Source of the DNA: Psammoneis japonica
Taxonomy: Eukaryota
Direction of reading: 5' to 3'
Length of the DNA stretch: 64,000 bases
NCBI GenBank assembly: GCA_008632985.1
Contig: QPGO01000281.1
Location: 1-64,000, forward strand
Positions 1-56,689 of the stretch are shown in pieces. Within the stretch, counting starts at the first letter, position 1. Each line of letters begins with the position of its first letter. Both the position numbers and the translations under genes were made by a program. Below the pieces are notes generated by a model. That model saw only the letters and a list, made by a program, of their open reading frames with translations, did no database searches and was not told where the DNA came from.

Positions 1-82
1 GTGCCGAGCTATGTACTGCGCCGTTGACGAAAATATCCAATGGCTTCGCCAACACTTTGGAGTTTCTTTTTGTTTTTGACAG

Positions 83-26950: not shown

Positions 26951-26965
26951 GCGTGCATCAATCTG

Positions 26966-32249: not shown

Positions 32250-33518
32250 TTGACATCTGCGGTCAATCCCAACTTTCTAAAACCAAAAGACATCACTTCC
32301 GTGGTTGATCTTTCCAGTGTCAACTGCTGTGCAAGGGAGTGTCACAACAACAGCGCGCTTGAACAGCATGACTTTTGCCCTCCTGAGCGAGTTCGTGATT
32401 TCACCCAGGTGCTTTTCAATCTTTTTCAGATGTGATTTCAACCCCAATCACCTTGACTCACTTTTGTGATTCCTTTGTCCGTCTTTAGGTTGATCTTGGC
32501 TGTGCCATGGCAGATGACCCTAGTCTGGGTGTTCCAATTGGAACCCCGTGCGCCAACATTCAGATGCTGGAAGATGTGCAGTGCACAGGAGAACCTGTCC
32601 CGGGTCCACTCACAGCACTCACGTTCGAGCACAAGTCGGCCCCTTGCCAACAGGATTCTCCCTCAGGCGGCGGATGCATTGGTGCTGGAGATCTAGCATG
32701 TTCACAAATTTCTGCAAGAGAAGCTCTCTGTGAGGGTGACGGTGACACGTTTTTCACAAATCTTGTTTCAAATGGTGATCAAATTCCCATTGATGATGGC
32801 ATGGCAGCGTTGCCCTCCAGCATCGCATGTAAATTCTTTCTTCCTGGGGGTGGCACGGAGTGTCAAACCGTGGCTGTTGACACAGCTGGAGAGAGTGGGA
32901 TCCTCAGTCTCCCCACTGGGTTTGGTGGCCTCACGACAAAGCAATGCACAGTGGGGACAGGAACTGTGAAGAGCTGCCCCATTGCTGTTGTGTGCACATC
33001 GGAGGTTGTGAACATTGCGGACACGAATTTGACGATCAATGAGTTTCTTTTCGAAATCAATGCGGAAGCAGAACAAGATTTGCTTCCCGGCGCCAGCACC
33101 ACAACCATTGAACCAGGTCAGAGTTCCGCAGCGGTTGGCCCGATTGTTGTGGACCATTGTGTGGACCAGTGCTGCGATGCCTCCATGACGATTGAAGTTG
33201 AAGACACATGTGGCACAGTCAAGAATGACAAGGACGACGACAATTTCTGCGTCGTTTTCGACTCCATTGAATTTTCCTTCTTTGACGGCACTCCTGCTCC
33301 TTGTGACCAACTCGTCATCCCGGACAGCCGAAGATGTGCCACTCCAAGTCCTGCCAATTGCATTGGTTTGTCAACGCTTTCAGTCCAGGATGTTTCTTGC
33401 AAAGAAAGCGAAAGCCAAAACAGCCAAGTCACCGATGCATGCGATGACTTTGCTGATGTGGGACTCGAAGGGGAAACATTCCTTGTCACGTGTGGCACCG
33501 CTCAGGCTGACACTCTAA
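32250..33518 (+). pseudogene. Gene A copy 2, 5' part (TpA-depleted); continues in 33872-33920, 52001-52029 and 53023-53459
   Basis: Phase-0 intron 32409-32488 (GT…ttttAG-type). ORF 32507 onward aligns to A3 and A1 (KNDKDDDNFCVVFD, LSVQDVSCKESESQN). Removing four insertions restores …IRDV.L.EPFEFDIGDDCPTERIQCKVYNP. Confidence 0.85.
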
Positions 33519-33868
33519 CGGCACACTGAATTAAAGTCGCGCATTGGGCGCACCCTCCAGCGAAAAGTGGGGGAGGGAGGGCAATGGTGTAAAACCATGT
33601 CAATCTGTAAAACACGTGCTTTGTCGTGCAAAACACATGAATTGGCTCGCTGCCTTGTGTCTGCACAGGATTCTACATGAGACCTGTCCGTCGTGCACCG
33701 GGCCGTGTTCGATTCCCTCGTCTGGCCGCCGGATGCACATTTTGACTGTTCATGCGCGCCAATTGCATGCGCGTTTTACAGAAACGTCCATTTTGCAGAT
33801 CTGGCCATTCGGGGGCAAAAGTGGGGTGAGGGCATGTGCCCAATGTGCGACTTTAATTCAGCGTGCCC
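33519..33868. mobile_element. 350-bp PIF/Harbinger-type MITE
   Basis: ~35-bp TIR (ggcacactgaattaaagtcgc / gcgactttaattcagcgtgcc). TSD is TAA (33516-18) on the left and CAA (33869-71) on the right. Interrupts the gene A exon. Confidence 0.85.
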
Positions 33869-35422
33869 CAATCAGAGACGTCTGTCTTTACGAACCATTT
33901 GAATTTGACATTGGAGATGACACTGCAAATGAGAGCCACTCTGAACAAGCTGTTTTTGCTCTAAACAAAAAACAAACAGAGCATTTTGCTCCGATTGCAA
34001 GTGCCAAATGATTGGTTGTGGCTTTGCTCTATTTGAGCCACAGCCAGAGCGACAGAGCAAAGTGCCGACATTTGCCCTGTTTGACCGCATTCAGAGGATG
34101 CCTTCAATTGAGTCCAATTCTTCAGGGCATTCGCTCCAAACAACTGCAGCCTCCTGCGACCTTTTACATTCTCAGAGCAAATGGTTTTTTTTCAAAGCAA
34201 ATGAACAATGAACATGTGCACACACAACAAGACGCAATGATGGACGATTCAAAGCGCCATTGGCGCACATGCACGCGTGCATTCATGGTTGCATGTCAAT
34301 GCTCGTCATCTCATTTTTGTGTGTGGCGATCTCGACGAGCATCGTTGTTGCTCCATCATTGTCGCCCATGTCGGCACATCACACACACAACACAATTTTT
34401 GCATTTCCACCTTTGTCCAAGTCATGGCCTCCACAGCCTTCTCCACATGCTGCAAACATTGCTTCTTGACTGTTCCATTGACTCAATGTGACAACTCCAA
34501 CAGCAAATTCCGACCTCGACCTGCAGCGCTGTTCAGACAGTCTGCGTTCCCTGGATCTGTTGTTTGGATTTGACCACAACCAACCTGTGGAACTTTGATC
34601 AGGTGATTCGGATCTTTGATGAATCAAGCGACCCGGCGGATCTCTTGATGGACGCACACTCCTCCTTCTTCCCTTGGGAGCGCCGGATCTGCTCCAAGCA
34701 GGAGCGTCACATGGACCTTTTCTGTGATGCATGGATGGGTGGAATTTGAGCAAGCAGATGCTGCAATGAAAAACAATGAGAGCAGCACAGCTTCACAACT
34801 CCTTTGTCACACGCAAGAGAATGTGATCGTGCGATGATGATGTCGCCTTTGTGTGGTCGTGATTGAGAGATGCATGTTGGGTGAGTCAGAACATCGGAAT
34901 CCGGAATTTTGCATGTCATCCCCTGTCGCGCGGCCAACTGGTTGTGGCCGCCTGCAGTGCCACAAACAGAACACCACAAAAATTCTGCACTCATCACAGA
35001 TTTTAACAAGAAAGTGAGTCCCCTCTTTTCCACAACATCACTGCATTTGCCGCATGTTGCAATGACACAAACAGCGGAAAAGCATGCATCCACAACACCG
35101 CTGCTGACACCGCTGTTGTCGTCAAACTTTGCTGTTCATGCAATGCCATTGTCGTTCATCCTTCCATTGCATGTTGTCATTTTTATCAACTTGTTAACAA
35201 GTGTTGACAATGTTGTGACCTTTGGCAAAGGATCATTGCAAGACACCACCAGAACAGAACCTGCAACGCTGCTGCAAGAACAATGCTGAGCTCACGGCAC
35301 AGTCTGTGCGTTGTTTCTTCACCTCGCATCTCAGATGATTTGGTGTGCATGCTGCACTTCGTTGACTCTTTACAATCATCATCAGGCACTGCAACGAAAT
35401 TGGTCACAGACAAAGTCAGCAA

Positions 35423-36928
35423 CTTCCCTGTGTCTCCGCGTCTGCTGCTGAGAATTGCACAGCAACGGACGAGTGGGACTGCCAGTCCGTCGCCCAGCGA
35501 CATTCCGCCAATCAGTTTTCATGACAAGACCTGGAGAACTGGCTGGGGCACCCTCGTTGTGTTGCACAGTTTGAAGAAAAGAGGACCGGCTGATCTGGGT
35601 TGTGTTGGCAGACGGCGCAAGCTCATTTCTCCTTGACATTGGCAAGAACACACACATTCCAGAGTCACTTGTCGGTGGATCGTCTCCGTCTTTGACATCT
35701 CTTCCCTGTGTCTCCGTGTCTGCTGCTGAGAATTGCACAGCAACGGACAAGTGGGGCTGCCAGTCCGTCGCCCAGCGATGTTCCGCTGATCGGTTTTCAA
35801 CAACAAGACCTGGAGAACTGGCTGGGGCACCCTCGTTGTGTTGTGCAGTTTGAAGAAAAGAGGACCGGCTGATCTGGGTTGTGTTGGCAGACGGCGCAAG
35901 CTCATTTCTCCTTGACATTGGCAAGAACACACACACTCCAGAGTCACTTGTTGGTGGATCGTCTCCGTCTTTGACATCTCTTCCCTGTGTCTCCGCGTCT
36001 GCTGCTGAGAATTGCACAGCAACGGATGAGTGGGACTGCCAGTCCGTCGCCCAGTGATGTTCCGCCAATCGGTTTTCAACAACAAGACCTGGAGAACTGG
36101 CTGGGGCACCCTCGTTGTGTTGCACAGTTTGAAGAAAAGAGGACCGGCTGATCTGGGTTGTGTTGGCAGACGGTGCAAGTGGATTTCTCCTTGACATCGG
36201 CAAGAACATGTGCATTCCAGAGTCACTTGTTGGTGGATCGTCTCCGTCTTTGACATCGCTTCCCTGTGTCTCCGCATCTGCTGCTGACAATTGTGCAGCA
36301 ACGGACAAGTGGGACTGCCAGTCCGTCGCCCAGCGACACTCTGCCAATGGGTTTTCAATGACAAGACCTGGAGAACTGGCTGGGGCACCCTCGTTGTGTT
36401 GCACAGTTTGAAGAAAAGAGGACCGGCTGATCTGGGTTGTGTTGGCAGACGGCACAAGCTCATTTCTCCTTGACATCATCTCCATCTGTCATGTCTCTTC
36501 CCTGCATCTCCGCGTCTGCCGCTGACAATTGTGCAGCAATGGACGAGTGGGACTGCCAGTCCGTCGCCCAGTGATGTTCCACCAATCGGTTTTCAACAAC
36601 AAGACCTGGAGAACTGGCTGGGGCACCCTCGTTGTGTTGCACAGTTTGAAGAAAAGAGGACCGGCTGATCTGGGTTGTGTTGGCAGACGGCGCAAGCTCA
36701 TTTTTCCTTGACATTGGCAAGAACACACATGTTCCAAAGCCACTTGTCGGTGGGTCGTCTCCGTCTGTTGTGTCTCTTCCCTGCATTTCCGCATCTGCTG
36801 CTGAGAATTGCACAGCAATGGACGAGTGGGACTGCCAGTCCACCGCCCAGTGATGGCCCACCAATCAGTTTTCAATGACAAGACCTGGAGAACTGGCTGG
36901 GGCACCCTCGTTGTGTGGTGCAGTTTGA
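35423..36928. repeat. 279-bp tandem repeat, about 5.4 copies
   Basis: Anchor gaagaaaagaggacc at 35573, 35852, 36131, 36410 and 36648 (one unit has a 41-bp deletion). Partial last unit. Confidence 0.95.
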
Positions 36929-37687
36929 TGCAAATGAGGCGAGGACTCACCTGCGATGTCAGGGGACAATGGAATGAAAGCTCTTGCCAAAGCGGCTGTT
37001 GTTGCATCCCAAGAAGAGAAGGAGGAAATTCCGGTTGTCACAGGAGGAGAATGACCACAATTCCCAGGAAGAAGATGTGGAAGAAGAGGAGGAGGAAATG
37101 CGGCTGTCAGAGGAGGAGAAGGAAATCTGTGAATTCCAAGGAAAAAGACAATGATGCTTCTCAGGAGAAGGAAGATGTGGACTCTTTGCCAAAATCATCA
37201 AAATCCAAGGAGGGGGACATTCAAAACATTCCTCCCAAGCTCCGGCATTTCGTGACTTCAATCAAACATGACATGTCAAAGCGTGTGCAGGACAATGTCC
37301 ACCGCACTTGTCCCTTGTTTGCCGTGGTCAACCCAAGCACAGAACCAAAATTACTGACTAAATTGGCAAATTCTGGACGCGGGCCAAATGATCGCGGGAA
37401 GAAATGCTTTTTGTTGCATCACAACCAGAAGGGGTTGTCATCTGACTTCTGCAAAGAAGGAATTAAAAAATCAAGGGCAGCTGCAAAGGATTTTCTTCTT
37501 CGTGAATTCAATCAAGAAAACGAAGGCGACATCATCGATTTGTTGAACAACAAACACACTCACATTTTGGGAATTTGTGCAGTGCCAAAAAATGAAGAAA
37601 TCGGCAAACTGGGTGCGCATCTTGTCGCTGCATTGTTGTGTCAGTGCATTGAATTGGTGCCAGCAACAATTGTTGACTGTGTTCGAG

Positions 37688-38893
37688 TCAACAGAGGAGC
37701 CAAAGTCCACAACCATGGGTTTGATCTGCAAAATGACTGAGCAATTTATGGATGCCACTCATTTCCTCGTCGGTGCACAGGTGTGCGTTTAACCAACAGC
37801 GGCATCCATCAACAATGCATTGGCTCACAAGAGGCTTTGTCCACTGATCGTGCTTTTGGACTTTCACATTGTCCAATGGGGTGGCACAAAGCAGGGGAAG
37901 GAAATGATTCTTGGTCGCAGGCATCAGATCACTTCGTTTCACAGGAGCAAACACAAGCAAGCCGCTGCCCCATGCATCTTGCTCTGTCACTTTGAGTTTC
38001 TTTAGGACAGTTTGTCGACGCTCGGCTGTGAGACAGAACTGTGAAGTTGCAGTCTTCCATGTCATGACAACTTCTTTACAATCCATGCCCGTGGAGGTGC
38101 CACAATTGGGAAGAGATGATGTCATGCTGCAAAACCGATTGCAATGATCGGGTTTTGCCAAAACTGTGCCAGCTTGCAGCCATTTGCCCATGGTGACACA
38201 GGCAACAGCATCAACAAAATGCTTGGGTTCAGCCAGGCATGACAGCATGCATCCACTGCATCCGCCCGTCACAATTTCGTCAACAGCAATCTCAAAGGAA
38301 TGGCGGTGAGCCAACCGACCGAGAGATTCTAGAAAATTGTCACTGGGTGTTGCGCCATTGTTTGCCAGCATTGGTTCTAAAAACAATGCAGTGATTGGCA
38401 CCTTCTTTGCAGCCTGCATCAAACAACGGAGATGAGTGTGGTTGAGACAATCGTTTTTGTGCTCACTGAGCTCCGCGGAGCTCAGAGTGCCTGGCACATG
38501 ATGCGGCAGCGCAATGGTGTGATTGCGTGTAAAAGAGTTAAAGACGTCGTCCGGATGCATTGCCATGCTCGGACCATGTTCTGCACTGAACATGCTGGCA
38601 GTCCAACAGTGGATCGGCCCATGATCACCGGCCACATGACTTCCACATGCAATCAAACATCCGTCGTTGTGCCCTCCCGTCACAGAATTGATTGCAAACA
38701 AATTTGCATCGGAGCCGTTTGGCATCACTTTGTGCAGGACGCATTCCAGGTCTAGGTGGGACCTCGCACCACTGAACTGTGACATCGATGGTTTTTTGAA
38801 TTGTGTCACATGTCGCGCATGCACATTTCTACGTGATTTTGGCGAAATTTTGTGTGATTTTACAGTGCAATGACCAGGCTGTCCATTGAACAA
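37688..38893 (-). pseudogene. Class-III PLP aminotransferase-like cargo gene
   Basis: Motifs NGSDANLFAI, ALFLEPML, AVDEIVTGG.SG and VTMGKW occur in the canonical order. Confidence 0.7.
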
Positions 38894-40393
38894 CTTTTAA
38901 CATTTTTTCTTCTATGCCATTCTCGAGTGTCTTAAGAATGGCGCAGGGCAGGCGCATTGTCCAAAACTTTGAGTACGGACAGGGACAGATGTGCAGCAAA
39001 CTTGGCTGTTTTTTTTTTATGTCAAAGACAAGTGCACACATTAACCAGACTACGAACTACAGAGCTCGCACGCAGAATTCTATGGGGCAAATGTCACAAA
39101 AAGTCCCACCCAGGACTGGAACCCGTCACAGCAGCAATTCACCATCAAAGTGAAGAAAAGTGGCTTCTTCCAACTGCTTGTGATGGCCGATGTCCATGGA
39201 AGAATTCATCAAATCTTTGCCATTGCGTTTTGAGCCACGCTGGCTGACGGCAACCAAACTGCACCCCCAATTTTTTGCCATGTCGTCCATGGCGTCGTTT
39301 GGGATTGTTCAACGTGCAAAAGAGCAAGATGCAAGATTCAAGAAGAGTCCCAAAAGATGATTGGATGGAAAAAAGGGGAGGGATCGCAGTTCTGTTGATG
39401 GACAAAAGGAGGCTCACGAAGCGCAGAGGATTTGTGAAAATGAGGTGGAGCAGCGCATGTGCTCTCAATCACCAAAAGCGCAAAACACGTGCATTCTGCT
39501 GCACTGTGCATTTGCAGACAAGCCCTGCACGCAGGGCCCCATGCATGTTCCACACGCTGAAAGAGTGGCACGCATGCGCGCATGTCCTCCCACCCAATCG
39601 TGTGATTGCACAATGCATTTCATTCAACAACGTAGATGAAGCGAGCACTTTAAAAAAGAGCACACATGAAAACTCAAACTTCAATTGTGGAAAATCATGC
39701 ATTCAAAAGTGAGCCAATGAGAACCCAATTTTTGTTTGAGGAAAATTTTGTTTCAAATGGGAGGAAAGAACAATCTTCTTAACACAACAGGTCGACATGG
39801 TTGTCAATGTTCATTTTAGAACATTGGTGCTTGATTGAAACAATGAAAAATGCAGAAAAGAGTGAAACTGAATGTGGTTCAAAAACCGTGCAATGAGAAC
39901 ATGCAACCGTGACTTTGCAATTGCACCAAACAGATTCGGCTCGTCCCGGACCATCCACAAGTGTAAAAAGTGATCAGAAGTCGAAAACACAATGACGAAT
40001 TCATTTCATCAGACACAGGTGTCGGTCGTCAGCCTTGATCTTACAAACACATCGAGGGCAGACACTTCAACAGAGGGAAACACAACCATGTCAAGGACAG
40101 ATGTTGCAACAGTGGGAAACACAGGTGGGTGTGTTTGAAATCGCAGCATGCGTTTGGAAGCTAACATTGTGATCTGACATGCAGTGGGAAGCTTCTGTGA
40201 CAAATCCAGGGGAAAAAATGACAGCACCCAATCGTCCACTGGATTGTCCAAGAGACTTTTTCCATCCGACAACAGGGGCTGACCCCGCAAGACCAGAGGA
40301 TGCTGCTCTTTTGTGGTCATGCGGAAAGGCACGTCCACAACTTGGTGAGGTGGAGACGGTGCCGCCCAATGGCAAGAAGATGCTTCAAGAGGT

Positions 40394-40778
40394 GGATGCA
40401 TTCCAGGTCCAGGTGGGACCTCGCACTGCTGAACTGTGACATCGACAGTTTTTTGAATCACGTCGCATGTCGCGCACGCAGATTTCTACGTGATTTTTTC
40501 GACATTTTGTGTCATTTTACGGTGCGCTCATTGAGCGATCCGTCCAACAACTTTTGACATTTTTTGTTGCAGCGCGATTCTACAATGTCTTAAGAATTGC
40601 GCAGGGCAGGCGCATTTGCAAAAACGTCAAGTGGTGACAGGCACAATTGCACCACAAACTTGGCCACTTATTTGATGTTGAAGACAAATGTGTCCATTGA
40701 TTAAATTCTCGCACTGCGGAGCTCGCACGTAGAATTCTGCGGGCCCAATGTCACACGGAGTCCCACCTGGGGCTGGAA
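40394..40778. repeat. Diverged duplicate of 38737-39121 (5' end of the aminotransferase-like gene)
   Basis: gcattccaggtc[t/c]aggtgggacctcgcac … agtcccacc is colinear in both copies. Confidence 0.85.
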
Positions 40779-42019
40779 TGCGTTGGTGGCACAAATCCGG
40801 TCATCCCTTTGAGGACACATCATGACTCAACACCTGGAGGGCTGTCGGAAAAATGCAATGGACAAGGGAGTGGCAATGCCATCAACAAACACCAATCCCG
40901 TCACAACAGAAGACTTCAAGAACATTCTGGCAAGCATGGACAGCACAACCAAGAATCAGCAGCTCGTGCATCAAGTTTTCCACGCCTTTCATCGCAACAG
41001 AGGATGGCTGGCTGCTGCCATTGACAAATGGTTTGCCGAAAACAACGTGAAGCTCATGCCGCACACCACGGACGCTTCCAGCAAACCTCGCAAAATGCAT
41101 CGCGATGACAGAGGCGGGTTTGCTGTGGTGGCACGCCAAGCCAAATGTCAAATGATTAAAATGTTCACGGAGTTTGTGCTGCGAAAAACAGGCTGGTGTG
41201 TGGCAACTGCAATGCACAGGAGCAACAAGGTTGTGTCGATGAAACCAGTGGCAGTGAGTTAGTCGCACATTGTTTGTTTGTCCTTTTGTTGACAAACTTG
41301 TTTGGTTTGTGACTTTGTTCCCATTTCTGGTCCTTGACAGCAGGACCAGAACACTGAAGCATCAAAACAAGTTGCTCAGGGAGCATCCAGCAAAGACATT
41401 GACATTGCATCCCTTGTGGACCTTGCGAAAACAGCAAGCATGTTGTCAGAACAAATGGGAGTTCCGCTGTCCAAGGAAGATTTGCTCCAGTCGATTCATG
41501 GCAGCATGACAGTCACCAGTTCATCCCAAATGGTCAATGAAGAGATTGTGCTTGATCCGCAACATGAGTCCAAAACTCAGGTGTCAACACTGACCATGGA
41601 CACCACGCTAAATTGCCCATCTGAACCTGCAGCAAAGTGGAAGTTAACCGAGAAGGAGAAGGAGGCAGAGCCAATTGCTTGTCGGGAACGCAATGATGAA
41701 CTAGAACCCCTCACCATGGATTTGGATGTCATCGATGGTTGGAATTCCAATGATGAAGAGTTGGCAGAAATGGTGTCACAGGTGACTGTGTGATTTGGTG
41801 GTCCAATTGCTGTGGTGTTGGATGGCTCTAACCAACTTCCGCTTTGATGCCTTGTTTGGCTTGTCAGACACAGTTGTCTGGGTCCCCTTGTTGCAGGATG
41901 GAACAAGAGCCCGGGAGCGCTGCAGCGGCAAGAAAAATGCATTGTGTCATGCGGCTGAATTGCACGTCACTCACGCTGCCATTCTTCATGCAAAAGGTTG
42001 ATGAGATGGATGAGCCAAC

Positions 42020-42570
42020 TGGTGCAAAAGAAAAGGTGAGAGCATTGTCGGTGCTCCAGCTGTCGATTTGGACTGTTGCTCTAACAGCTCTTTGGCATCA
42101 TTGGGTTGCTGGATGCCACACCAAACCATCCCAGACAGTTGAAACACTGGAGGGAGTGCAAAAAAAACAAGTGAGTGAACAGAGTTCTGAGGCTGAGCGC
42201 AACACATGGCGGATTGGATTGACCAATCACACTGCTCCTGCTGTTCTTCATGACCAGGCAAATGAGGTGGTTGACATTGGCAACAATGAAAAGGTGAGAG
42301 CATTGTCGGTGCTCCAGTTGCAAATGAAGCCATTGCTCTGACCACTTTGGGGCGTCATTGCTGGATGCCAGACTCAACCATCCCCAGTTGCTGAAATGCC
42401 AGAGAGAGCACCACAGAAGATGGTGAGACCACATTGTCTTGCAGCCAATTGTGCAATTCATCGGACATGTCTCACACAGCCATTGTTGTTTGCAATGAGA
42501 AAGGTCGAAGAGACAATGGCAAATGGTGCAAATGAAAAGGTGAGAGCATTGTTGGTGCTCCGGATTGCCA
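42020..42570. repeat. Three imperfect ~250-bp repeats
   Basis: gaaaaggtgagagcattgt.ggtgctcc at 42030, 42288 and 42534. Confidence 0.7.
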
Positions 42571-44571
42571 TTGAGAAGTTGATCTGATGGCATTCAATGT
42601 GTGTCATGACGGCATTTCTTTTGCAGACTCAACCAGCCAACCACTCTAAACCATTGTCAAATCCATTGCAAAATGGGACGGTGAGAATGCATGATGAAGT
42701 CGTGTGGATTGTGCTCAGTGTCTTGGAAACACCTCTCACTTTGTTGTTTGTTTGCAACAAAGACAAAGACAGCAAATGACAAACGCACACACAAAACTGC
42801 AACACTCGTTGTGGCTCAAGCGGATCAAACAACTGCTTGCAATTCGCAGGCACAGAGCAAACATCATTGTTGATTTGGCGTGCCTGTTGTTGTGTTGTCT
42901 TGTTCACGCACGCATGCCAATTGTGTTTGTTTGTTTGTGTTTGCAGCGCAAGTGCGAGGAGGCTCACTTGTTCCATGCCTTGGTCCATCAAGATGATGGA
43001 AAATGTTTTGCTCAAGCGCACTTCAAAACCAACCCACTGTTCCCTGCAAAGTGCTGTGGCAAAAAGTGTGATGTTGCTTTTGGATCAAGCAGTCACAAGG
43101 TTGGACAAAGAAAGGCAGTTTGGGTTTGCATGAATGCATTGAATGGTTCTTGCAATTGCAGGTTTGCATTGTGTGTGCAGTGTTGTCAAAAGACCATGTC
43201 AGCTGCATCTAACAAACGGCGCCGAAGGACGACCCGAAACAACAACAACAAACAACAAGGCAACGCAATCGCGCACGACACAACAATGTGATTGCTTGGG
43301 ATTGATTTCACCGGCACAGTCAGGGTTCGGTGGATGTGTTTGTCAACAGAGTCAATCGAAGCACAGCTTCGCAAATGACAGTTGTTCAGAGCATCAACAA
43401 ATTTGTTCAGAGTTGTGATCTGTTTAAATGGAGAGGCTGTCGTTGTCCGTTGTTCATTCAGAGCTTTGCTCCAATTAAATGGAGATTCCACGCACGGGCA
43501 TCCAAACATTGTTCAGAGTCATGCTCTGATTGAATGGACACAATCACAGCAGCACTCTGAATGTCAGCACAATGCTCTAATTTACAAATTAATGCTCTGA
43601 AAATGCAATGCTCCAAACAAAATTCCATGGCTCCGAATGACCAAATTTACTCTGATTGTGCTCTGCATGGGCGTTGTCGCCTCAACTGACTCTTGTTTGC
43701 TCTGAATGTCCCACATTGTGTCGGGACAATTTAAATGAAGCATTGCTCAGAATGAAACATTCGGAGCACAAATGAAGAGAATCTCATTTGCAGTGGACTG
43801 TCGAGAATTGCCAACTCCTCACCACGGAGATGCTCGCCAAATGCTCACCACATCTGTTTGCATCAGTCGCGCGAATGCTTCCCGCCCCACCTGACCCCCT
43901 TCACACCCTTCCTCATCAACGCCCAAATTTCGCTAAGTCGAAAATTCCACTGCGCTGCAGCGCACTGTAGAGCAACGGTGATCGATTTGAGACGTCACGT
44001 GCTGAGCCGCATGTAGAAATCTACTGAGATGACTTGATGTGTTTTTCGTGTAAGTCGCCATGGCGTCTGCGGCCGTTTCTCACAACTTCTTCCAGATTTA
44101 AAACAATGGAAGCAGCACCGTGTGACAATGTCAAGTCCACATGATCATGTCAGGTGAAGAAAATGGCAAAATGGTGTGGACTTGTGGCTAAAATGGACTT
44201 GTTGCATTCACAGGATTGTTCGTGCACCATGCAAACTCAATGCGTGAGGCAGCTAAACTAGATCCACATGATGCACCAACAAGCTTAAAGACCAACTTAA
44301 ATCTGGAGGATTTAATCGGCTCATCATTGTGCAGTTTGATCTTAGACTGAGGGGTCGAAATGGCCCGAGAAAAGGATCTAAAACTTGACAATTGACAGCT
44401 TCTGAAAAAACTCCACAAGTCTGCGATTGCAGCACTGGACAAAAGAGAAATGAACTTCACAGACCAATTGGCACACGACGGTTCGATTGCTCTTCTTTTT
44501 GTTGTCATGCGGTTGAAATTTGACGCCGTTGCGGGCCATCATTTTCATGCTCTGTGTGCCACCATGTTGTC

Positions 44572-45157
44572 TGTCATGTGGCACAAGGCCCATTGTGGGT
44601 GATTGTGGTAAATTTAAGAGTCGTTCATGAAAAGTGAGACCACAAAAGTGTAAAATTATGAAGTGAATTTCTGGAGCGGTGATCTCGCGGAATGTTCTTC
44701 TGATTCTTTCTTTTCCAGAGAAATTCTGTTCTCGTCATGTAGGAACATTCCTGGGTTCTTCTTTAAGTGTGTGTCGTCCAAGGGAACGTCTTGGGACTTC
44801 CGAGGAGGTCACGTATGGTGTCCGAAGGTGTCACGGGAAAAATCGAGAGATCCGATTCACTCTTCATCGTTTCGACCGTTTTCTTGTGAGAATCGGATTG
44901 GCTGAAAAGGAACTTGAAGTTCGGCTGAGAAATGTCTTCTCGATTTACTTGGGAAGTGATGCACGTGTCCAGTTGTTTGCCATCGCTTTCCGCACATGTC
45001 TGGTTGTTTGCTCAGGAGGAAGATGTTGGACAATTGTTCATGCAGTGTGCATGTGTCTCTTGATGTGTGCTCACACAGATGTGTGTTGGTTCTGTCCGCA
45101 GTTCTCTGTTGTTCTTTGTGACGTCACGAAGTGTCGGGTCATGAGCACGACGTGACA
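44572..45157 (-). repeat. 3' LTR
   Basis: Direct repeat of 51209-51798. Confidence 0.95.
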
Positions 45158-45180
45158 CACGCCTCCTCCAATGAATTGCA

Positions 45181-45852
45181 TCAGGGAGAGAAAGGAACGA
45201 GACGCCGTGCATTGACAGTCTCAAGGCAATTTCCTTTTTGGATGATGACAGTGCCATTGGACTTTACTTCATGTGTCTCGGCGAGTTTGGATCGACGAGG
45301 GTTGTCGTTTCGGAGAGAAACAAGGTCTCCTGCTTTGAAGTCATGGTCGTGTCGCCGAGAGTTCTCACGCACGTTGTCTGCTTGCGCTTGTTGTCGGCGG
45401 CGAGCACAAATGGTCGGCCAGTGGACGTTGCATTGCAAGGGCAGGATCACATCGCGTCCAAAAGCAAGTTGGCTGGCAGAGGCTTGCATGACGGTGTGTG
45501 CCGTCGAGTTTGTTGCCCAAGTTGCTGAGGCCATTGTCACATTCCACGGATTCGGTTGATTAAATGCGTCGGGATCATCAACTTGTTGAGCTCGTGTGCA
45601 GCTCCATGAAACATCGTGGGTCCGTTCAAGTGATAAACTCACCTGTGGACTCCGCACTGTTGTGGGTTTAGACTCAATTCCATGAGAAATTGGCAGTTCT
45701 TGAAATTCAACACCTGTAAATTCTGTGCTGTTGTCGTGTGTGCAACAGACCGGGCGCGGGAATTTACACAACCATGCTTGGTTGAATGCTCTGGCTGTTT
45801 CCAGAGCTGAGACTGTGGAGATCTGCTCCATGCCAAAATGATGAGTGGCCAG
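45181..45852 (-). pseudogene. Gypsy integrase core and GPY/F region
   Basis: WLCKFPRP…HDNSTEFTG.EFQE…GIESKPTT…PQ…ERTH; …QLAFGRD; FKAGDLV; ETVNARRLVPF. Confidence 0.85.
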
Positions 45853-47034
45853 GGACACACGGCATTTTGTCGCATTTGGTGACATTTTCTTAAATGAATT
45901 GATGATTTGTCGCGAAAAGACGCGAATTGCAACAAAATGTCCGGGTTGGCAATAAACGGGACAGAAACATTGTTCAACTGAGTCACAAAATGATCAATGT
46001 CATTGATGACCAACCTGCACTTTGGCGATGTCGTTTCAACAAGTGGGGCAATTAACAGAATTTGGTGATCGATGTCATCGACGAAATTTCATCTGACAAA
46101 ATTTGTCGGATGCGACAAAATTTGTCGTGTGAGACAAATTTTGTCGGACGTCCGACAACGCATCCGACAAGACACGACAAGACACGACACGACACGACAC
46201 GTCACGACACGTCACGACACGTCACGACACGTCACGACACGTCACGACACGTCACAACACGTCACAACACGACGACTCACGAACGAAACACCCACACCCC
46301 CCGCCGCACACGCCAACTGCTGACGTCTCCGTTGACACTGTGTCTCTTTTGCACAATGATGCAAAGCGACGATCATGCCGCTCTCGGCGGTCTCCAATTT
46401 TTTTATTTCGAAATTTTGCACTGTCACTCCATGTCCCCGAATGTCGTGCTCTCGTCAATGCCGGGACAACATCGTACGCTTCTACACAGTGGAACGGAAT
46501 GTGCCGGCATGTGTTGCTGTGCTGCACCTTTCATCAGTGGGTGGCTGGGGCCCAGCTCTCTGCTGGTCTAGCGAGCGGCAGGCAAATCTCGTGGAGACAG
46601 TGTCGCAAACATCCGTCTGTCGGCGTTTGTCGGCTCTTGTTGGCTCTTGTTGGCGTTTGTCGTACGTTGTCGGGGTTTGTCGGGGTTTGTCGGATGCGAC
46701 AAAATTTGTCGTACGTCCGACAAAATTTGTCGCACGTCCGACAAAATTTGTCGCACCCGACAAAATTTGTTGCATCCGACAAAATTTGTCGCACGTACGA
46801 CAAAATCGCCAAAACATCAATTGATGAGTGCAGTCTTCGCCGAAAGCCAAATTCATCACAAAGCACCGCAGTTGACACAACGTTTGTGTTTGGGACACGC
46901 CATCGCCAATTAAATGATGATTTTGTCTCATTTATCGCCAACGATGTAAATTTGTCTCAAAGGGCGTTTTTCACGACAAATCGTCCAATTCATCCATGGG
47001 AATGTCGCAATTGGCGACAAAATGCCGTGTGTCC
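45853..47034. mobile_element. 1.18-kb non-autonomous TIR element (Harbinger-like) inserted in the integrase
   Basis: TIR ggacacacggcattttgtcgc / gcgacaaaatgccgtgtgtcc, TSD CAG on both sides. Internal 10-bp (gacacgtcac) and ~21-bp (cgacaaaatttgtcg…) arrays. Confidence 0.85.
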
Positions 47035-49549
47035 CAGATCTGCCATCGCCGGCACCAGCAGTGAAGGCAATCGGTCTGACGGTGTCAACTGCCACCTGCA
47101 ACCAGGGGTCGATCTCAAGGGCTTGCATGTCCTTGAGAGGTGTTTTTCCATGCACTCTGCGGTTCTCTTTGGACCTTGCACAGGCCTGGCATTGGTCTGT
47201 CTTGGTCTTGACGTCTTGGGTCAGACCTTGCCAATGGCAGCACTGTCTGAGGGTCTTTTCCATCCATTGGACACCTGGACAGCGCAAATTGACATGACAC
47301 CAATTCAACAGAGGTGCTTGTAGAGTGGCGGGGATGACAATCTTGTCCTTAAAAAGGGCCAGGCGCAGGTGTCCATCCTGCACCATGCAACTGCAGTCAG
47401 ATGATTCTTTCTGACTCGGGTCGGTGCGAGCAAGTTGCAGCGCTTTTTTGCACACAGCATCATCTTGCTGTGCTTCAATGATCGTGTCAAACGAGACAGG
47501 ACAGCGAGTGTTGTCGTCATGTTCAAAGGCGAAACACTCTTCCAGCATTGGATCTGCAGCTGGTGTCTCTGGGTCACCAGTCGTGGTCGCGGCACGGGAT
47601 GAGAAATCCGCGAGCACATTTTTTGCTCCCGGCAGGTGAAGAATCGTGGGACCAAACTCCTCAACAATCAGCCGCCAACGACACACACGGTCTGATTTGA
47701 AATTTGCAAAGGTCAGATTCTTGTGGTCCGCACAAATCGTGATCCTGTGACCCAACAGGATGTCACGACACTCTCGTAGCGTCACAACTGTCGACAGCAG
47801 TTCTTGTTCGATGACGGGATGTCTTTTTTGCGTGTCAGAGAGTTTGCGGGAGTGGAACATCATTGGGCGCTTGTCTTGAATGACAACGCTGCCCAGCTGG
47901 TGTTTTGAAGCATCGGTGTAGATGTGGAACATCTCATTGAAATCAGGGCAGGCAAGTGGCGTCTCAGCAGAGATTCGTCTCTTAATTTCTTGAAACGCTT
48001 GCTCGTGTTCGGGTTTCCACTCGAACTTGACTGCTTTCGAGGTCATGCTCGAAAGAGGTGCCAATGGATGGGCACGAAGGCACAACATTTCGAGACAGAA
48101 GTTCATCATTCCGATGAAACCTCTGAGTTCTTTCTTTGTTTTGGGCGAAACCAAATTCACAATCGCGTTGACCTTCTTCGGTTGCGGTTTGATTCCGTCT
48201 CTGGCAACAATGAACCCCAGGCACTCCGTTTCTAGAGCGCAAAAGAAAGTTTTTCGCAAATTTACTCTAAAGCCTGAATCACTCAAAAGCACAAATGCTC
48301 CACGCAATTGGGCGAGGTGATCATCAAAGGATCCCTTGCCAATGATCAACAAGTCGTCAACAAAAATCAGTGCAAATTCCAAGTGTCCTAACAGGTCAGT
48401 CATGACCTCTTGGAACACATCTGGGGCTGGTGCAAGTCCCATTGGTGATCTGCAGCAAGCACATTTGCCAAACGGCAGCGCAGCAGTCAGATGTTGCTGA
48501 CACTTCTGGCTGATCCGCATTGAAAAAAATCCCATGTTCAAATCGATCGCGGTGACACAAGCACAGCCGTGCAGCTTTCGTAGCATGGTTGGCATTGAAG
48601 GCAGAGGCCACGGGCGTCGTTGCATGCATCGATTTAAAAGCCAAAAGCAGGTGACGAATCGGCAATCACCACCTTTCTTCGGCATGAACAATGAAGGAAA
48701 TCCCCAAGCTGAGTCTGAGATCCTTCTCAGAACTCCCACTCGGCACAATCTCTCTGCTTCTTCTTTTGCCATGTTGCAGTTGATCTGGGGCATGCTGCAA
48801 GGTTGACACATGATGGGCTTGGTGCTGGGCTCAAGCTCAACATTGACCGGTGGTCGCTTGACGCATTGTCCGAGCTCTCCTTGCGTGAGACTGGAGAAGT
48901 CTTCCAGCAAGGCAATGAGAGCTTCACCTTGCTCTCTTGACAAGTGGTCAGGCACACACTCCCTCAAGTCCTCCACAGGACCACAGTCATTCGGGCGAAC
49001 AGCTTTGGCCTTGGGAGCCGCCACAAGCTCTTCTCGCGTCGTCGGTTGGTGCCAAAAATCCTCGGGATGTCTCATCGGAAAGGACAAGTCATCCCAAGCA
49101 ATGACTTTTTCTTGGAAATCAAGCTTCATCCCAAGCTTGAACAGGACATCTCGTCCTGCTGCAGCATCATAGATTCCTTGCAAGGGTGAAATGTAGAAGC
49201 ACAAATCGAATTGTCGGTGCAAGGACATGTCAAGGAATCGACAACGAGTGAGTGCGACATGAGTTGTCTGATGGGTCTGCGCAAACAAGGTCTCCCATCT
49301 TGTTGGTGCTGGGGTGGCCTCATCCAGTGTTCCTTTTGAGAGCACATCTCTTTTCATTGTTGTTCGACTGCTGCCGCTGTCGAGCAAGGCAAGCAGAACA
49401 TTGTTGCTTTTGTCTCGAGTCCCATCAACTGGATCGAGCAGTTGAAGTTGCACGACACATCCGGGGTTGACCTGGAACACATGAGCCCCTTCTCGTAGGA
49501 TGTGTCCCTCCATGAGGGAACACTGCGCAGTCGCAATCGTCCATTCCAT
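47035..49549 (-). pseudogene. pol: Gypsy pol: protease, reverse transcriptase, RNase H, integrase zinc finger
   Basis: LLDSGSS; AIDLNMGF, PMGL, FVDDLL, LGF; TDASK.QLG, EQELL, DHKNL, ADFSSR; H…PG…C..C. Confidence 0.92.
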
Positions 49550-49899
49550 CTGGACACAATGCCTCCATCAACTCCTGGGCGTCTGTGCTGTTGTCATGTT
49601 CAAAAATTGATGACGTCAGAGACGCGCGCTCGTCTGCGCTGTCTACAGGATCACGCTCGTCATCGGCATCTTCTCCAAAAGATGACAGCTCGTCCACAGA
49701 CGACATGCACAAGGTTGTCGACGATGCTGCTGACATGCTGCTGTCGGCACTCCACAAATCATTGCTGTCTGTCGATGTTGATCCACCATGTGGCACAAGT
49801 TCCGGCAGGCTGGATTCGTCAGTTGTTTCCACTGTGGATCCCTGTCTTTGTTGCAGCTCAAAGTTTTCTGGCAACAGAGAACGCAGCAATTCTCTTCCA

Positions 49900-50953
49900 C
49901 GCAAGCATCACATTCTCCATCTGATTCTTCATGAGAATGGCTCGCATCGTCTTCCTGCATCTCAAGTCCATCTTCTTGTTCGCAAGGTTCAGGTTCAGCA
50001 TCATCTCTTGTGCTGAGTTGTTCCAGTTGTTCAGCTGGGGTTGTGTCTGTGCTGCTGTCCAGGTTCTGGACTGGTGGAGCTTCTTCTGGCTCGTTCACGG
50101 CACGCATTTCTTGCTGGTTCGTTCGGGCATGTCCTCTCTGTTGACCACAACCTTGAGGATGGTTCCTGTCACGCTGTAAGTTGGCTTGGCATCGAGCAGG
50201 ATGTCGATGTGTTTGGTCAGGAGGAGCTCCGGCGTTGTTGTTGTCATTGTTGCTCGGTCGCATCGCTCGGTCGCCTCCATGTCCGCACGCGGTTCGGCAG
50301 CCGTGAGTGTGGGCACGTCTCTGGAATTGCCATTGGTTGCTTGACAACCTTCTCTCTTGTTGGGCCTTCTTCTTCTGCAGGAAGGATTCAATGGTGGAAC
50401 AGCATGTCTCCAAGTCTGCCGTGCCATGCTCGCCTCTGTGTCCGACGGACAGCTGGAATCTCTCGCGCCAATCATCCGGCACAGCGTGCTCTGCTGCATG
50501 AGTCAACTCTTGGTCGGTGAGAGGGGCTCTCTCTTCTGCAGAGCCTCTCATGCAGGGCACTGGCTCATTGATTTCCGAAACTCTGGAGGTGAAATCAATG
50601 AAGGCAGACTCTCTTGGCTTGCGCACGGAGCGCAAGTGCTGTTTCTGTGCCACCGCTGAGTTTTGCGGAAGCAATCCAGCAGTGACGGTCTCCAATGCTG
50701 CACTAAATTGTTCTGGGGTAAGATCTTGTGGGTCTTCAACTAGAGCTCTGACAGCTCTTTGATGTCGGTCCTTTGTGCAGCCTTTGGTTGGGCACAGCAT
50801 CTGGCAATGGAGGGCTGGTCCAGCGGTCCAGTGCTTGAGCTTTCTTGGCTCATGAAAGTTCTTTAAGAACACTGGGTGCTTCTCCTTGTTGGAGGCATCA
50901 CACTGATGGATGTAGAATGCCACAGTGTCTTCCGGGTCTCCCAGGTCAGGCAC
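49900..50953 (-). pseudogene. gag: Gypsy gag-like ORF
   Basis: Lies between the 5' LTR and pol. QKQHLRSVRKP…F..RV.EINE…AVPDDW…F pattern. Confidence 0.7.
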
Positions 50954-51208
50954 AACCTTGCACTTGATTGGGTTCGCAACGTCGTCCGCTGCATTTGGGG
51001 TGCGACTTGTGTGACTTCACAATCGCTTGACTGGTCATGTTCTCCTGTGCTGTGTGAGCATCATCTTGAGGCAATGCTCTAAAGTGCCATTCTTCAGTTC
51101 CGTCGAACTGGGGGCTGCATGCGTGGGCTTTCTTCGCCTTGAGCAGAATGCTCAGTGCTTTGCTGAGAGGCGGCATCATCACAATGACACGCCACTGTTT
51201 GATCAAAG

Positions 51209-51798
51209 TGTCATAGTGGCACAAGGCCCATTGTGGGTGATTGTGGTAAATTTAAGAGTCATTCATGAAAAGTGAGACCACAAAAGTGCAAAATTATGAA
51301 GTGAATTTCTGGAGCGGCGATCTCGCGGAATGTTCTTCTGACTCTTTCTTTTCCAGAGAAATTCTGTTCTCGTCATGTAGGAACGTTCCTGGGTTCTTCT
51401 TTAAGTGTGTGTCGTCTAAGGGAACATCTTGGGACTTCCGAGGAGGTCACGCATGGTGTCCGAAGGTGTCACGGGAAAAATCGAGAGATCCGATTCGCTC
51501 TTCATCGTTTCGACCGTTTTCTTGTGAGAATCGGATTGGCTGAAAAGGAACTTGAAGTTCGGCTAAGAAATGTCTTCTCGATTTGCTTGGGAAGTGATGC
51601 ACGTGTCCCGTTGTTTGCCATCGCTTTCCGCACATGTCCGGTTGTTTGCTTGGGAGGAAGATGTTGGACAATTGTTCATGATGTAGCATGCATGTGTCTC
51701 TTGATGCATGTTCACGTAGATGCACGTTGGTTCTGTCCGCAGTTCTCTGTTGTTCTTTATGACATCACGAAGTGTCGGGTCATGAGCACGACGTGACA
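51209..51798 (-). repeat. 5' LTR
   Basis: Direct repeat of 44572-45157. Confidence 0.95.
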
Positions 51799-52029
51799 TG
51801 TCGATGCTTGTTGTTTTCTGTTTTCTGGGCGTTGCCGTCAGTTTTGGTCGGTTTTGATGGGGGGGGGGGATTGTGTTTGGTTTGAAAGAGTGATGTGGCA
51901 GTTCGCATATGACGGAGAGACTGACGTAATATATTTTTAACGAAAAAGTCGTGGTGAGCATTTGGTGAGCATCTCCGTGGTGAGGAATTAGCAATTCTCG
52001 GACTGTCCAACAGAAAGGATCCAGTGTAA

Positions 52030-53019
52030 GGCCAACCCTAACCGAGCGAAAAAAGAAAATGAAAAAGACGAAATAGCTCGAAAAGCTCGAACTTACCCGG
52101 ATTTTCACCCTCGACTCTTTTTCAACTCGGCCGAAACGAAAAAAGAGTCCGACTCTTTTTTCACAAACCCGGAAGCGTGAAAAAAGAGAAAAGAGTGATG
52201 TGGGCCGGATGCTGTCATACGTTTCGTACATGCGTCTTGCTTTACGTAGGACACCAGTAAAGTAAACCAAAGTTTCAAGTTCGCCTCACGCACCCCACAT
52301 CATCAAGTCGCCATGGCGGTCTGTGATTGTTTTTGACGACTTCTTTCAACGTCACGACTATATAAGTAACACCAATCGATAATGTGAAGTAGACATGATA
52401 TGTATCTTGAAGGAACTGGTGAAGTGTACTGCAGTTCTTCTACAATAGACCTGTACTGCAGTTCTTCTACAACAGACCTTTTGTCTTCAAATGATTTTGC
52501 CTGTCTTGATGTGCATCATAGAAAGTCGACACATAAGGTCACTAAAGTAGATCTGTATGACACATAAACAACCTTACTGACTAATTCATATACGACTTAT
52601 TCGACGGTGCTATTCTTATGTTGTTTGCTTTTAGATTAGGGGCTCGAAACGGCACGAGAAGTGTACAAAAACTTTCCACTTGACAACCACTTAAGTCACC
52701 CATAAGCCTGTTGTATTTTCACTGAACAAAAAAGGAAATAGCACCCACAGACTAAGAAAAATATGGCGGTTCTAATGGTGTTATTCTTATTGTCATATTG
52801 TAGAACTTCGATGCCGTTATGGGCCGTCATCTTCATTGTCGTGTGAGGCCTGAGGCCTCTCGCTTTTCTTATCAGATCAGCAATGCCCAAGACACCCGGA
52901 TATTTAGGGGCCCTAACTTTTTAATTTTCACGCCGGTTAGGTCACCAAAACGACAAAACGAAAAAAGAGATGAGGTTGGCTCTTTTTCATTTTCTTTTTT
53001 CGCTCGGCTAGGGTTGGCC
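52030..53019. mobile_element. 990-bp PIF/Harbinger-type non-autonomous element with normal TpA content
   Basis: ~39-bp TIR ggccaaccctaaccgagcgaaaaaagaaaatgaaaaaga and its reverse complement ending at 53019. TSD TAA (52027-29, 53020-22). Confidence 0.9.
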
Positions 53020-53022
53020 TAA

Positions 53023-53459
53023 AGTCTACAACCCTAATGAATGATGAGAGTCAGATAATCCAGATGGTTAGTTTTGATACGTCTGGCGCGGAACCGTTGG
53101 ATCTCAAGGATGCGTTTGGAAAATTTCAGATTGAAGGTTGTGCTGATCAGATGAACAGCTTTAACCGGCTATGTCTCGCCCCTGTTAATTCCATTTATTC
53201 CGTGTCAAATATTGGTGACGAAAATGTCACATTCACTGCTGAAGGTTCTGATTCGTTCGGTCGAGTTACTCTTGAAGGCGTAAGTCTTGAACAGGGTGAG
53301 ACCGTCGGTTTTTTTGGCTTTGGCGGCTTTCTCGATCTTTGTATTGAAGGCATTGCTTGCTATACAAGCAATTTGACTGCCAGGGCTGAATCTGATGAAA
53401 ATGGAGGCCTGTGTGAAGATATGGCGATGGATGAGCTTTGTTATGATGTGAGGATTTGA
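53023..53459 (+). pseudogene. Gene A copy 2, 3' part (TpA retained)
   Basis: Closely matches 430-862. Tyr codons are intact. Confidence 0.88.
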
Positions 53460-56218: not shown

Positions 56219-56689
56219 GTGCGCACCTTATTCTTGCTGCCGCGAAAAACTGCGAGGTTCACTTTTTATGACCAGTGCTTTTAAGCCTGGATGTGGGCTC
56301 ACTGGGGTGTTGCATTCGTCGATCGGTGCATTTTGTGAGTCCTTCAAAAACACACACGAAAAAAACTCGCGATTTCATTCCTGGATGTGTCACGAATTCG
56401 AATGTCGATTCTCGTTTTTGTTTTTGGTCTCAACCATCGTTTGCGCCATGCGTATCGTGGATTCTTCTCAAATCTTTGACAAGGAACGAAGGATGAACTA
56501 AGCAAAACGGAGAACGCCATTGTCACTTCATGCAGCCGCTGCTTTGTGTTTCTTTTTTCTTTTTTGTCAAAAAAGTGCAAGACGAAAGACGAGTCACGAT
56601 TGCATGACGTCCCCAACGATGACGAGTTTCTACTTACAATTGCTCCTACGTAACAGCTCCATACAAAACATTGTATCCAAGACTCTAAG

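Follow-up and report, generated by a model that had tools for sequence, protein, structure and literature searches.

The 64,000-nucleotide window analysed here (positions 1 to 64,000 of the forward strand of contig QPGO01000281.1, from the Psammoneis japonica assembly GCA_008632985.1) holds three copies of a DUF7467-family gene, designated A1, A2 and A3, and two compartments that are strongly depleted of the dinucleotide TpA (written TA where single sites are counted). Copy A2 is interrupted by ~18.4 kb of other DNA; its 5′ fragment lies inside the larger compartment and has lost nearly all of its TAs, while its 3′ fragment lies outside and has kept them. The best explanation, which we consider likely, is that A2 was broken by insertions and that its 5′ fragment was hypermutated as part of a chromosomal compartment in which TpA is converted. 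In kind, the process is already known: it corresponds to the TpA hypermutation of the alga Bigelowiella natans, and the original prediction, which was made from the sequence alone and treated it as previously undescribed, is corrected on this point.

The split copy of the DUF7467 gene

Pfam assigned A1 to DUF7467 (PF24269), whose gathering cutoff is 27 bits, with a score of 33.4-34 bits, and A1 has observed/expected (o/e) ratios of 0.52 for TpA and 1.01 for CpG. The two A2 fragments scored 24.2 bits (5′) and 22.5 bits, under the cutoff as expected for pieces. The A2 5′ piece aligns to A1 93-353 and ends at 33518. Homology to A1 restarts at 51985 (A1 383, aligned to A1 383-436) and can be followed by eye from ~51967 (A1 ~357), and relative to A1 the break points are complementary to within ~4-30 bp. 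Transversions from A1 were found at 16/242 sites in the A2 5′ fragment and 38/622 in the 3′ fragment (6.6% and 6.1%, p = 0.76), whereas transitions were found at 28/242 and 23/622 sites (11.6% versus 3.7%, p = 3.5e-5). Since transversions are untouched by the process, their equal frequency in both halves, together with the complementary break points, indicates that A2 is a single gene copy split by ~18.4 kb. The contig depth of the 5′ fragment (~62; depths throughout are from public-run contigs) is the level of unique pieces.

We compared TA content along A2 with that of A1 and A3. In the aligned 5′ part, A2 has 1 TA in 267 nt and 0 in 112 nt, compared with 11 in 284 nt of A1 and 8 in 283 nt and 4 in 112 nt of A3; in the aligned 3′ part, the counts are 33/630 for A2, 35/633 for A1 and 29/641 for A3. 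This alignment, which the original prediction had proposed, showed that loss is unequal between the two halves of A2, with 1 TA in 371 nt at 33148-33518 and 34 TA in 631 nt at 53020-53650 (Fisher p = 2.5e-6). The 5′ fragment as a whole holds 4 TA in 1030 nt (o/e 0.07) and has a GC fraction of 0.518, versus 0.43-0.46 in the other copies. Where A1 and A3 both have TA, A2 has CA at 2 of 2 sites, and all four exon 1 TAs of A3 are TG or CA in A2. The strings quoted earlier from these copies are present at 33161 and 60430, and three A3 TAs correspond there to TG, TG and CA in A2.

These counts and the complementary breaks bear out the earlier claim of one host gene with a TA-depleted 5′ half and an intact 3′ half, with two corrections to the placement of its parts. 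The 3′ half had been started at 53023; the gene already resumes at ~51967-52029, and 52030-53019 is a separate terminal inverted repeat (TIR) element. The gene had been described as split across the domain edge; the composition edge falls between 51758 and 51908, ~60-200 bp to the left of the gene restart.

Outside the compartments, A1 and the A2 3′ part are 87% identical over 1.1 kb and their companion blocks B1 and B2 are 89% identical over 1.9 kb. The statement that these duplicates keep their TAs was confirmed: B1 and B2 have 71 TA each, 55 of them at shared sites, and A1 and the A2 3′ part share 33 TA sites. They kept these TAs during a period in which the process was active, as judged from the long terminal repeat (LTR) pair described below.

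A separate observation concerns a 118-nt stretch of A3 (60531-60648), common to A1 (1-85) where A1 lies in the window, that is missing from the A2 5′ fragment at 33250-33270. The stretch carries a putative intron (GTAAGT..CAG). Its loss was not a precise intron removal with respect to the GTAAGT donor, as 17 nt upstream and 3 nt downstream are also gone, and A2 stays in frame across it. In sequence it looks like intron loss by genomic deletion.

Composition, edges and paired copies

Compartment 1 contains 259 TA in 47,884 nt, with o/e ratios of 0.08 for TpA, 0.58 for CpG, 1.66 for CpA and 1.59 for TpG. Compartment 2 contains 7 TA in 3,566 nt, with TpA at 0.03 and CpG at 0.12. CpA and TpG reach 1.6-1.9 in the two compartments, and AA (o/e 1.23) is not depleted. 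In the blocks outside (1-4016, ~51905-56730 and 60416-64000), TpA is at ~0.6 and CpG at ~1.0. In 2-kb windows, the TpA ratio was 0.02-0.2 over 4-52 kb and 58-60 kb, and 0.55-0.65 in the normal windows up to 62 kb.

The compartment edges are steps. Counted per 200 bp, the outer sides of the four edges have 14, 10, 7 and 12 TA and the inner sides 0, 2, 1 and 0. The first TA of A3 lies at 60431, 16 bp past the edge, and flanks with the compartment on one side only are unaffected at 16-100 bp from the edges. The 1-kb A2 piece, which is enclosed on both sides, is saturated while the outer flanks are untouched, a pattern that fits a compartment better than leakage limited by distance. Along the window, the CpG ratio falls at the same edges as TpA.

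As a side observation, the CpG loss is patchy. CpG o/e is down to 0.04-0.7 in the blocks, with 0.04-0.2 at 4401-6800, 22401-23200 and 57201-60400 and 0.6-1.7 in the gypsy element, with TpA low all along the blocks. The decay of CpG seems to trail the loss of TpA and may serve as an age marker for individual pieces of the blocks. Within compartment 1, 16909-17746 is a ~420-bp tandem duplication, 94% identical, whose 22 differences include 10 of CG versus TG/CA and 6 transversions.

Three kinds of paired sequence lie across the edges of the compartments and act as internal controls: gene halves, tandem copies and transposon relatives. The gene halves are those of A2. The tandem copies belong to a ~280-bp unit at the left edge of compartment 2; at the nine TA sites of copy 2a, outside, copy 2b has CA four times, TG four times and GT once. 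The transposon relatives are the TIR element at 52030-53019 and its diverged relative Z. The TIR element lies ~130 bp outside the edge, has 40-nt arms that are 98% complementary, a TAA duplication on both sides and no transposase open reading frame (ORF), and shows a TpA o/e of 0.69 and a high summed contig depth. It may be of the PIF/Harbinger type, in which elements have a 3-bp TAA/TTA target duplication and autonomous copies a DDE transposase; the target duplication is the basis for this assignment. Z is 65-68% identical to it in nucleotides and 84% in purine/pyrimidine space. Z has 9 TA in 497 nt compared with 41 in 532 nt outside, and at the TA sites of the outside element it has TG nine times, CA eight times and TA five times.

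A family of 394-bp miniature inverted-repeat transposable elements (MITEs), two copies of which (76% identical) lie in compartment 1, is very abundant: contigs jump over exactly 394 bp at each of the two sites, and its summed contig depth is ~1e4 to 6e4 versus ~62 for unique pieces. These high-copy MITEs are less depleted than the single-copy A2 5′ fragment. In a tandem array with a ~279-bp period, copies are 85-89% identical in nucleotides and 98-99% in purine/pyrimidine space, which makes almost every difference between copies a transition; the TA profile has 0 TA over 35601-37200. Taken with the controls across the edges, the comparison with the MITEs suggests that location, rather than homology or copy number, directs the process.

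In-place mutation at TpA and its sequence context

The gypsy element at the right end of compartment 1 provides a record of mutation after insertion. Its LTRs (44572-45157 and 51209-51798, 95% identical) have TG..CA ends and are flanked on both sides by a 4-bp target duplication, TGTC, and an empty-site contig joins 44567 to 51799. The pol ORF (46928-49549, minus strand) has Pfam matches to RVT_1, RNase H and Integrase_H2C2 in the order reverse transcriptase, RNase H, integrase; Pfam did not detect an integrase core or gag/protease in the element. Among protein-atlas clusters, those nearest to pol occur most often in Oomycota, Arthropoda, fungi and Bacillariophyta, with few members each, and are a weak lead.

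The LTR pair has 28 differences, 27 of which are transitions. Sites pair as TA/TA at 5 positions, TA/CA at 5, TA/TG at 3, CA/TG at 4 and TA/CG at 0, and as CG/CG at 25, CG/CA at 6 and CG/TG at 3, so that 9 of the 28 differences are CG versus TG/CA and 3 of 28 (over 586 nt) lie away from TA or CG sites. In the duplicate pairs outside the blocks, by comparison, transversions make up 55/99 and 64/132 of the differences and transitions 44/99 and 68/132, with 0 and 1 CA/TG sites. Because the two LTRs were identical at insertion and now differ at TA and CG sites, the process acts on the DNA in place, after integration, as read from this pair. The lack of TA/CG sites is consistent with one hit destroying a palindromic target.

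The same pair allows a rough estimate of rate. When sites lost in one copy are set against sites lost in neither, loss per LTR copy comes to ~0.44 per TA and ~0.15 per CG, on a background of ~0.26% per site. The excess over background is ~200-fold at TA sites and ~60-fold at CG sites, and its interval is wide given that the background consists of 3 events; the TA rate is thus roughly of the order of 100-1000 times background. CpG decay in the LTRs was slower than TpA loss, as a second process alongside it. The implied TA count per LTR at insertion is ~16-20, a near-normal density.

We next considered the bases around the target. The share of surviving TAs that lie in TTAA is 24% in the blocks versus 4.4% outside. 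Among 266 TA in the blocks and 477 outside, ATAT occurs 0 versus 34 times, ATAC 0 versus 39 times and GTAT 1 versus 33 times. By class, densities per kb in the blocks versus outside are 0.12 versus 11.75 for RTAY, 2.45 versus 20.04 for mixed sites and 2.61 versus 6.60 for YTAR (chi-square p = 1.6e-29). Polarised events, in which some sites are counted against two outgroups, give lost/kept ratios of 13/0 for RTAY, 28/9 for mixed sites and 8/7 for YTAR. These distributions fit a target preference of 5′-R-T-A-Y-3′, that is, an adenine in T-A-Y on either strand with a thymine in R-T-A opposite. In gains by 4-mer class, the TAY-strand product reaches 20.4/kb and the TAR-strand product 10.3/kb, which is suggestive of the TAY-strand adenine being favoured at mixed sites.

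Table 1. Features of the window, in order of position (empty cell, nothing given).
Feature	Position	Strand	Details	Basis
A1, 3′ part of DUF7467-family gene	1..862	+	5′ exon beyond window	Pfam DUF7467
Segmental duplicate 1 (A1 3′ part + block B1)	427..4002		partner 53020-56739	self-BLAST, 87-89% identity
Compartment 1, TpA/CpG-depleted	4017..51900			composition, step-like edges
A2 5′ fragment	32489..33518	+	host-gene piece enclosed in compartment 1	alignments, Pfam DUF7467
Inserted composite block splitting A2	33519..51966		~18.4 kb	complementary break points
Tandem array	35423..36939		period ~279 bp, no TA	self-BLAST offsets
MITE, 394 bp	38734..39127		12 TA; second copy 40391..40784, 7 TA	terminal inverted repeats
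Z, diverged relative of 52030-53019 element	44052..44548	+	in compartment 1	
Ty3/gypsy LTR retrotransposon	44572..51798	-		LTRs, Pfam domains, target duplication, empty site
A2 middle piece	51967..52029	+	gene resumes outside compartment	local alignment to A1
TIR element, non-autonomous, inserted in A2	52030..53019		990 bp	TAA target duplication, inverted arms
A2 3′ fragment	53020..53459	+	TAs intact, 18 TA/440 nt, o/e 0.52	
Edge unit copy 2a	56448..56728		outside, 9 TA	purine/pyrimidine-space BLAST, three-way alignment with 3732-3993 (14 TA) and 2b
Edge unit copy 2b	56847..57127		in compartment 2, 1 TA	same three-way alignment of ~280-bp unit
Compartment 2, TpA/CpG-depleted	56850..60415			composition
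Repeat	59666..60415		95% identical to 22378-23129	ends exactly where A3 homology starts
A3, DUF7467 copy, 5′-truncated, frameshifted	60417..61436	+	normal composition	Pfam 45.8-46.6 bits

The remaining content of the window was searched for recognizable genes and elements. In the block DNA at 4-44 kb, a Pfam search of 142 stop-to-stop ORFs (110 aa or longer) found no transposon or viral family; its matches were the weak DUF7467 of A2 itself and sub-threshold hits to Aminotran_3 (26.3 bits), Cwf_Cwc_15 (17 bits) and SKI (16.6 bits). Two viral-contig scans turned up no relatives, and Rfam and tRNA scans of the window gave no match. Beyond the edges, 4080-8000 and 57150-60420 showed no homology above the shuffled level in a purine/pyrimidine-space local alignment (score 262, shuffles 288-298). 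The Aminotran_3 hit belongs to a long ORF at 37691-38896 (minus strand), a weak class-III aminotransferase match under the Pfam cutoff of 30.5 with a best PDB match at E = 0.0026; by its sequence, this ORF may be a second host-gene relic trapped in the block. The description of the domain as transposon-dense is supported in part, by one gypsy element, the MITEs, the tandem array and a contig depth that is high from 34 to 52 kb; at 4-44 kb, Pfam found no transposon family.

Depletion also changes the apparent coding content of the blocks. Per kb per strand, TAA occurs 2.6 times in the blocks versus 8.3 outside, TAG 1.2 versus 8.1 and TGA 23.4 versus 18.1, and open frames of at least 110 aa, which overlap on both strands, number 3.1/kb versus 2.4/kb. 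With TAA and TAG stops lost, the depleted blocks are somewhat richer in long open frames, and gene predictors may over-call genes in them. Outside the compartments, 62001-64000 is GC-rich (58.7% GC) and has overlapping long ORFs on both strands, including one of 531 aa at 61958-63553 (minus strand); these long ORFs had no Pfam match.

The A-family proteins have 51 distant multi-domain relatives among 1.84 billion representatives at E up to 1e-3, with 26-39% identity over the matched stretches (29% for the top-scoring one), and the 10 that were looked up are metagenome proteins. Neither the A2 5′ ORF nor A1 found a match in word-index protein searches, and a protein-atlas comparison of A3 gave a best score of 0.87, to bacterial DUF7507 clusters, and no usable lead. 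The proteins encoded in the window are therefore absent from the collections searched, a weak argument against an annotated reference strain. The 5′ end of A3 is cut by the repeat ending at 60415, and a frame change is needed between its SIEF.. and PCDQLV.. segments. By its sequence A3 would thus probably be a pseudogene, although its composition is normal in full.

Explanations, known systems and significance

In the explanation that we favour, A2 would be the sister of A1, the two having arisen when a segment of at least 3.6 kb, block B included, was duplicated. It would have been broken by DNA now totalling ~18.4 kb, including MITEs, the tandem array and the gypsy element, with the 990-bp TIR element as a separate insertion in A2. 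Its 5′ fragment would thereby have come to sit between a 28-kb spacer and an 18-kb insert, both in one compartment. A DNA-level process in that compartment would turn TpA into TpG or CpA after integration, with one hit removing the palindromic TA site so that TA never becomes CG. Everything enclosed, including the single-copy host fragment, would be mutated, and sequence just outside would be spared, duplicate or transposon alike. The compartment is probably cytosine-methylated heterochromatin, to judge from the co-extensive CpG decay, and the enzyme that we infer is an adenine deaminase of the polynucleotide type with DNA as its substrate.

Several observations weigh against this explanation. 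In the repeat shared by 22378-23129 and 59666-60415, only four sites are CA/TG, so most of its depletion predates copying. The depleted state was inherited with the copy, and where an edge falls sharply at a repeat end, its cause may be historical and not targeting. The claim that the process follows position and not homology is supported by the A2 halves, the 2a/2b pair and the TIR/Z pair, and is weakened by this inherited depletion, by an overstated contrast with RIP (repeat-induced point mutation, below) and by one unpolarised example. The split of A2 is not one clean insertion: A1 354 to 357-382 (~4-30 bp) has no clear counterpart in A2, and we found no target-site duplication of the 18.4-kb block and no element terminus at 33519 or near 51966. 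The 118-nt stretch absent from A2 needs a secondary deletion, and A1-specific changes are denser in the 5′ part (17/264) than in the 3′ part (18/613). At mixed sites, the adenine was changed 18 times on the TAY strand and 8 times on the TAR strand, a difference that includes some double counting and has p = 0.076. The motif ccaACAgaa, which had been read as a converted TA of A1, is literally present at 52007 and is unpolarised, as A3 also has CA there and a TA gain in A1 is possible. Finally, Pfam found no transposon or viral protein at 4-44 kb, and the heterochromatin state, the methylation and the enzyme are read from sequence.

In one alternative, targeting proceeds element by element, for example through small RNAs, or elements arrived already depleted. 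The edges would then be insertion junctions, and the A2 5′ fragment would have been hit as part of a transcript from its neighbours, produced by read-through or in antisense. The 60415/60416 edge does lie within 16 bp of a repeat end and the 4017 edge within ~60 bp of a homology end. The copies that share most of their depletion indicate that the state travels with the sequence, and the younger insertions (MITEs and gypsy) are less depleted than their surroundings. We nevertheless consider element-wise targeting unlikely, because saturation of the single-copy A2 fragment equals that of the oldest sequence nearby, the high-depth TIR element shows no depletion at 130 bp outside the edge and its relative Z inside does, the high-copy MITEs are less depleted than unique DNA, and the gypsy element arrived with approximately normal TA content and lost TA in place. 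Far less probable still is that the A2 5′ fragment and the 3′ half never formed one gene, the fragment having been captured by a mobile element, or derived as a processed retrocopy from an edited transcript, and mutated as part of that element. Such an origin could account for the missing stretch with the putative intron, the denser 5′ changes of A1 and the lack of a clean target-site duplication, but it is at odds with the complementary break points (A1 353 versus ~357-383), the transversion distance to A1 shared with the 3′ half, the imprecise ends of the missing stretch, and a contig depth equal to that of other unique pieces.

A still smaller chance attaches to an assembly chimera in which a depleted block was misjoined into A2. 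The region is repeat-rich and the public contigs are short, and the right-hand junctions (51.9-52.03 kb and 53019/53020) are unbridged among the contig pieces listed, which leaves the misassembly that had been raised at the outset addressed on one side and counts against the split as we describe it. At the left junction, one 361-nt contig bridges 33300-33580 with 0 differences, and a misjoin would not produce two gene halves that are exactly complementary, equally oriented and 18 kb from each other. Just as improbable is ADAR-type A-to-I editing of element transcripts, fixed in DNA by reverse transcription, whose A-to-G changes with a 5′ U/T preference resemble those in the window, a resemblance also discussed in the B. 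natans preprint. Against it, the changes are strand-symmetric, with CpA and TpG nearly equal in compartment 1; MITEs, tandem array and host fragment are affected where they lie; TA sites differ between the two LTRs of a single inserted copy; and AA is not depleted. Two further candidates were rejected. Gene conversion restoring TAs in the A2 3′ part and B2 was ruled out by their 7-9.5% divergence from A1 and B1, about half of it transversions, and ordinary pseudogene decay was ruled out because both A2 halves are equally broken and TA is depleted in only one.

A literature search for this signature elsewhere found one relevant description, a 2026 preprint on mutation-accumulation lines of B. 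natans (Mettrop et al., bioRxiv 10.64898/2026.01.13.699255). According to its main text, 231 of 302 nuclear mutations fell in integrated giant-virus and virophage regions, and 230 of these 231 were A-to-G or T-to-C changes, all on TpA, converting it to TpG or CpA, at a rate of ~6e-7 versus 3.5e-10, with the main region being single copy and the process active in only some lines (bioRxiv 10.64898/2026.01.13.699255). The authors describe 124 clusters depleted in TpA and enriched in CpA and TpG, with targets that include reverse-transcriptase and DDE-transposase sequences, and propose DNA adenine deamination by an ADAT2-like enzyme (bioRxiv 10.64898/2026.01.13.699255). A separate preprint reports that a single H3K9me3/H3K27me3 heterochromatin state covers transposons and repressed genes in B. 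natans, which would be in keeping with a compartment model if the window came from that species.

Measured against the main text of the first preprint, the window shows the same near-exclusive A-to-G/T-to-C transitions from TpA to TpG or CpA (in the LTRs, the A2 5′ fragment, copy 2b and Z), the same confinement to discrete regions at a rate far above background and independently of copy number, and the same long-term TpA depletion with gain of CpA and TpG, of which it represents an end state. Unlike the giant-virus and virophage regions of B. natans, which still have 3.3% and 9.2% TpA in that account, the ~48-kb block of the window is near saturation at 0.5% TpA, and it holds a retrotransposon, MITEs and a host-gene fragment, while the measured B. 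natans targets are giant virus and virophage. The preprint's main text, to which this comparison is confined, makes no mention of CpG, flanking context, boundaries or host genes. What the window adds to the B. natans description is location-based targeting, in-place action, co-extensive CpG decay, the R-T-A-Y preference, step edges and an enclosed host fragment. A more specific reading is possible and is offered tentatively, as somewhat doubtful in its full form: P. japonica would be a second eukaryote with hypermutation of this type, tied to CpG-methylated heterochromatin and not to sequence identity, with ends sharp to the base pair, bridging short unique DNA so that host genes become bystanders, and carried out by a recruited TadA/ADAT-like deaminase that reads TAY.

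Other known processes share parts of this pattern. In filamentous fungi, repeat-induced point mutation (RIP) changes C to T at CpA, enriches TpA, is triggered by duplication and ruins mobile DNA in place; it is also known to leak into adjacent single-copy DNA. Like RIP, the process in the window causes dinucleotide-specific transitions in place at the DNA level and produces compositionally distinct blocks. Unlike RIP, it runs in the opposite direction, with TpA lost and not gained, and it left duplicates of 87-89% identity over 1-1.9 kb untouched while a single-copy fragment was hit. The contrast with RIP drawn in the original prediction stands in these respects and was overstated, since RIP leaks as well, a point that also tempers our explanation. 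Deamination of 5-methylcytosine in methylated transposons accounts for only the CpG part of the record (9 of the 28 LTR differences). The substrate of TadA and ADAT2-ADAT3, the candidates named in the B. natans preprint's main text, is an adenine after U or T, as in the window. The bacterial TadA site is U-A-C-G, in which a pyrimidine follows the adenine, and this resembles the T-A-Y preference found here, as a lead from sequence context only.

The B. natans preprint is the only printed description of TpA hypermutation that we found, and it covers one alga and leaves open how targets are chosen and what sequence the enzyme reads. The P. japonica window provides three internal controls across compartment edges and an LTR pair that serves as a clock, and the comparisons that it allows narrow the search for the enzyme. 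If the more specific reading given above is true, host genes that are caught between insertions would be destroyed as bystanders.

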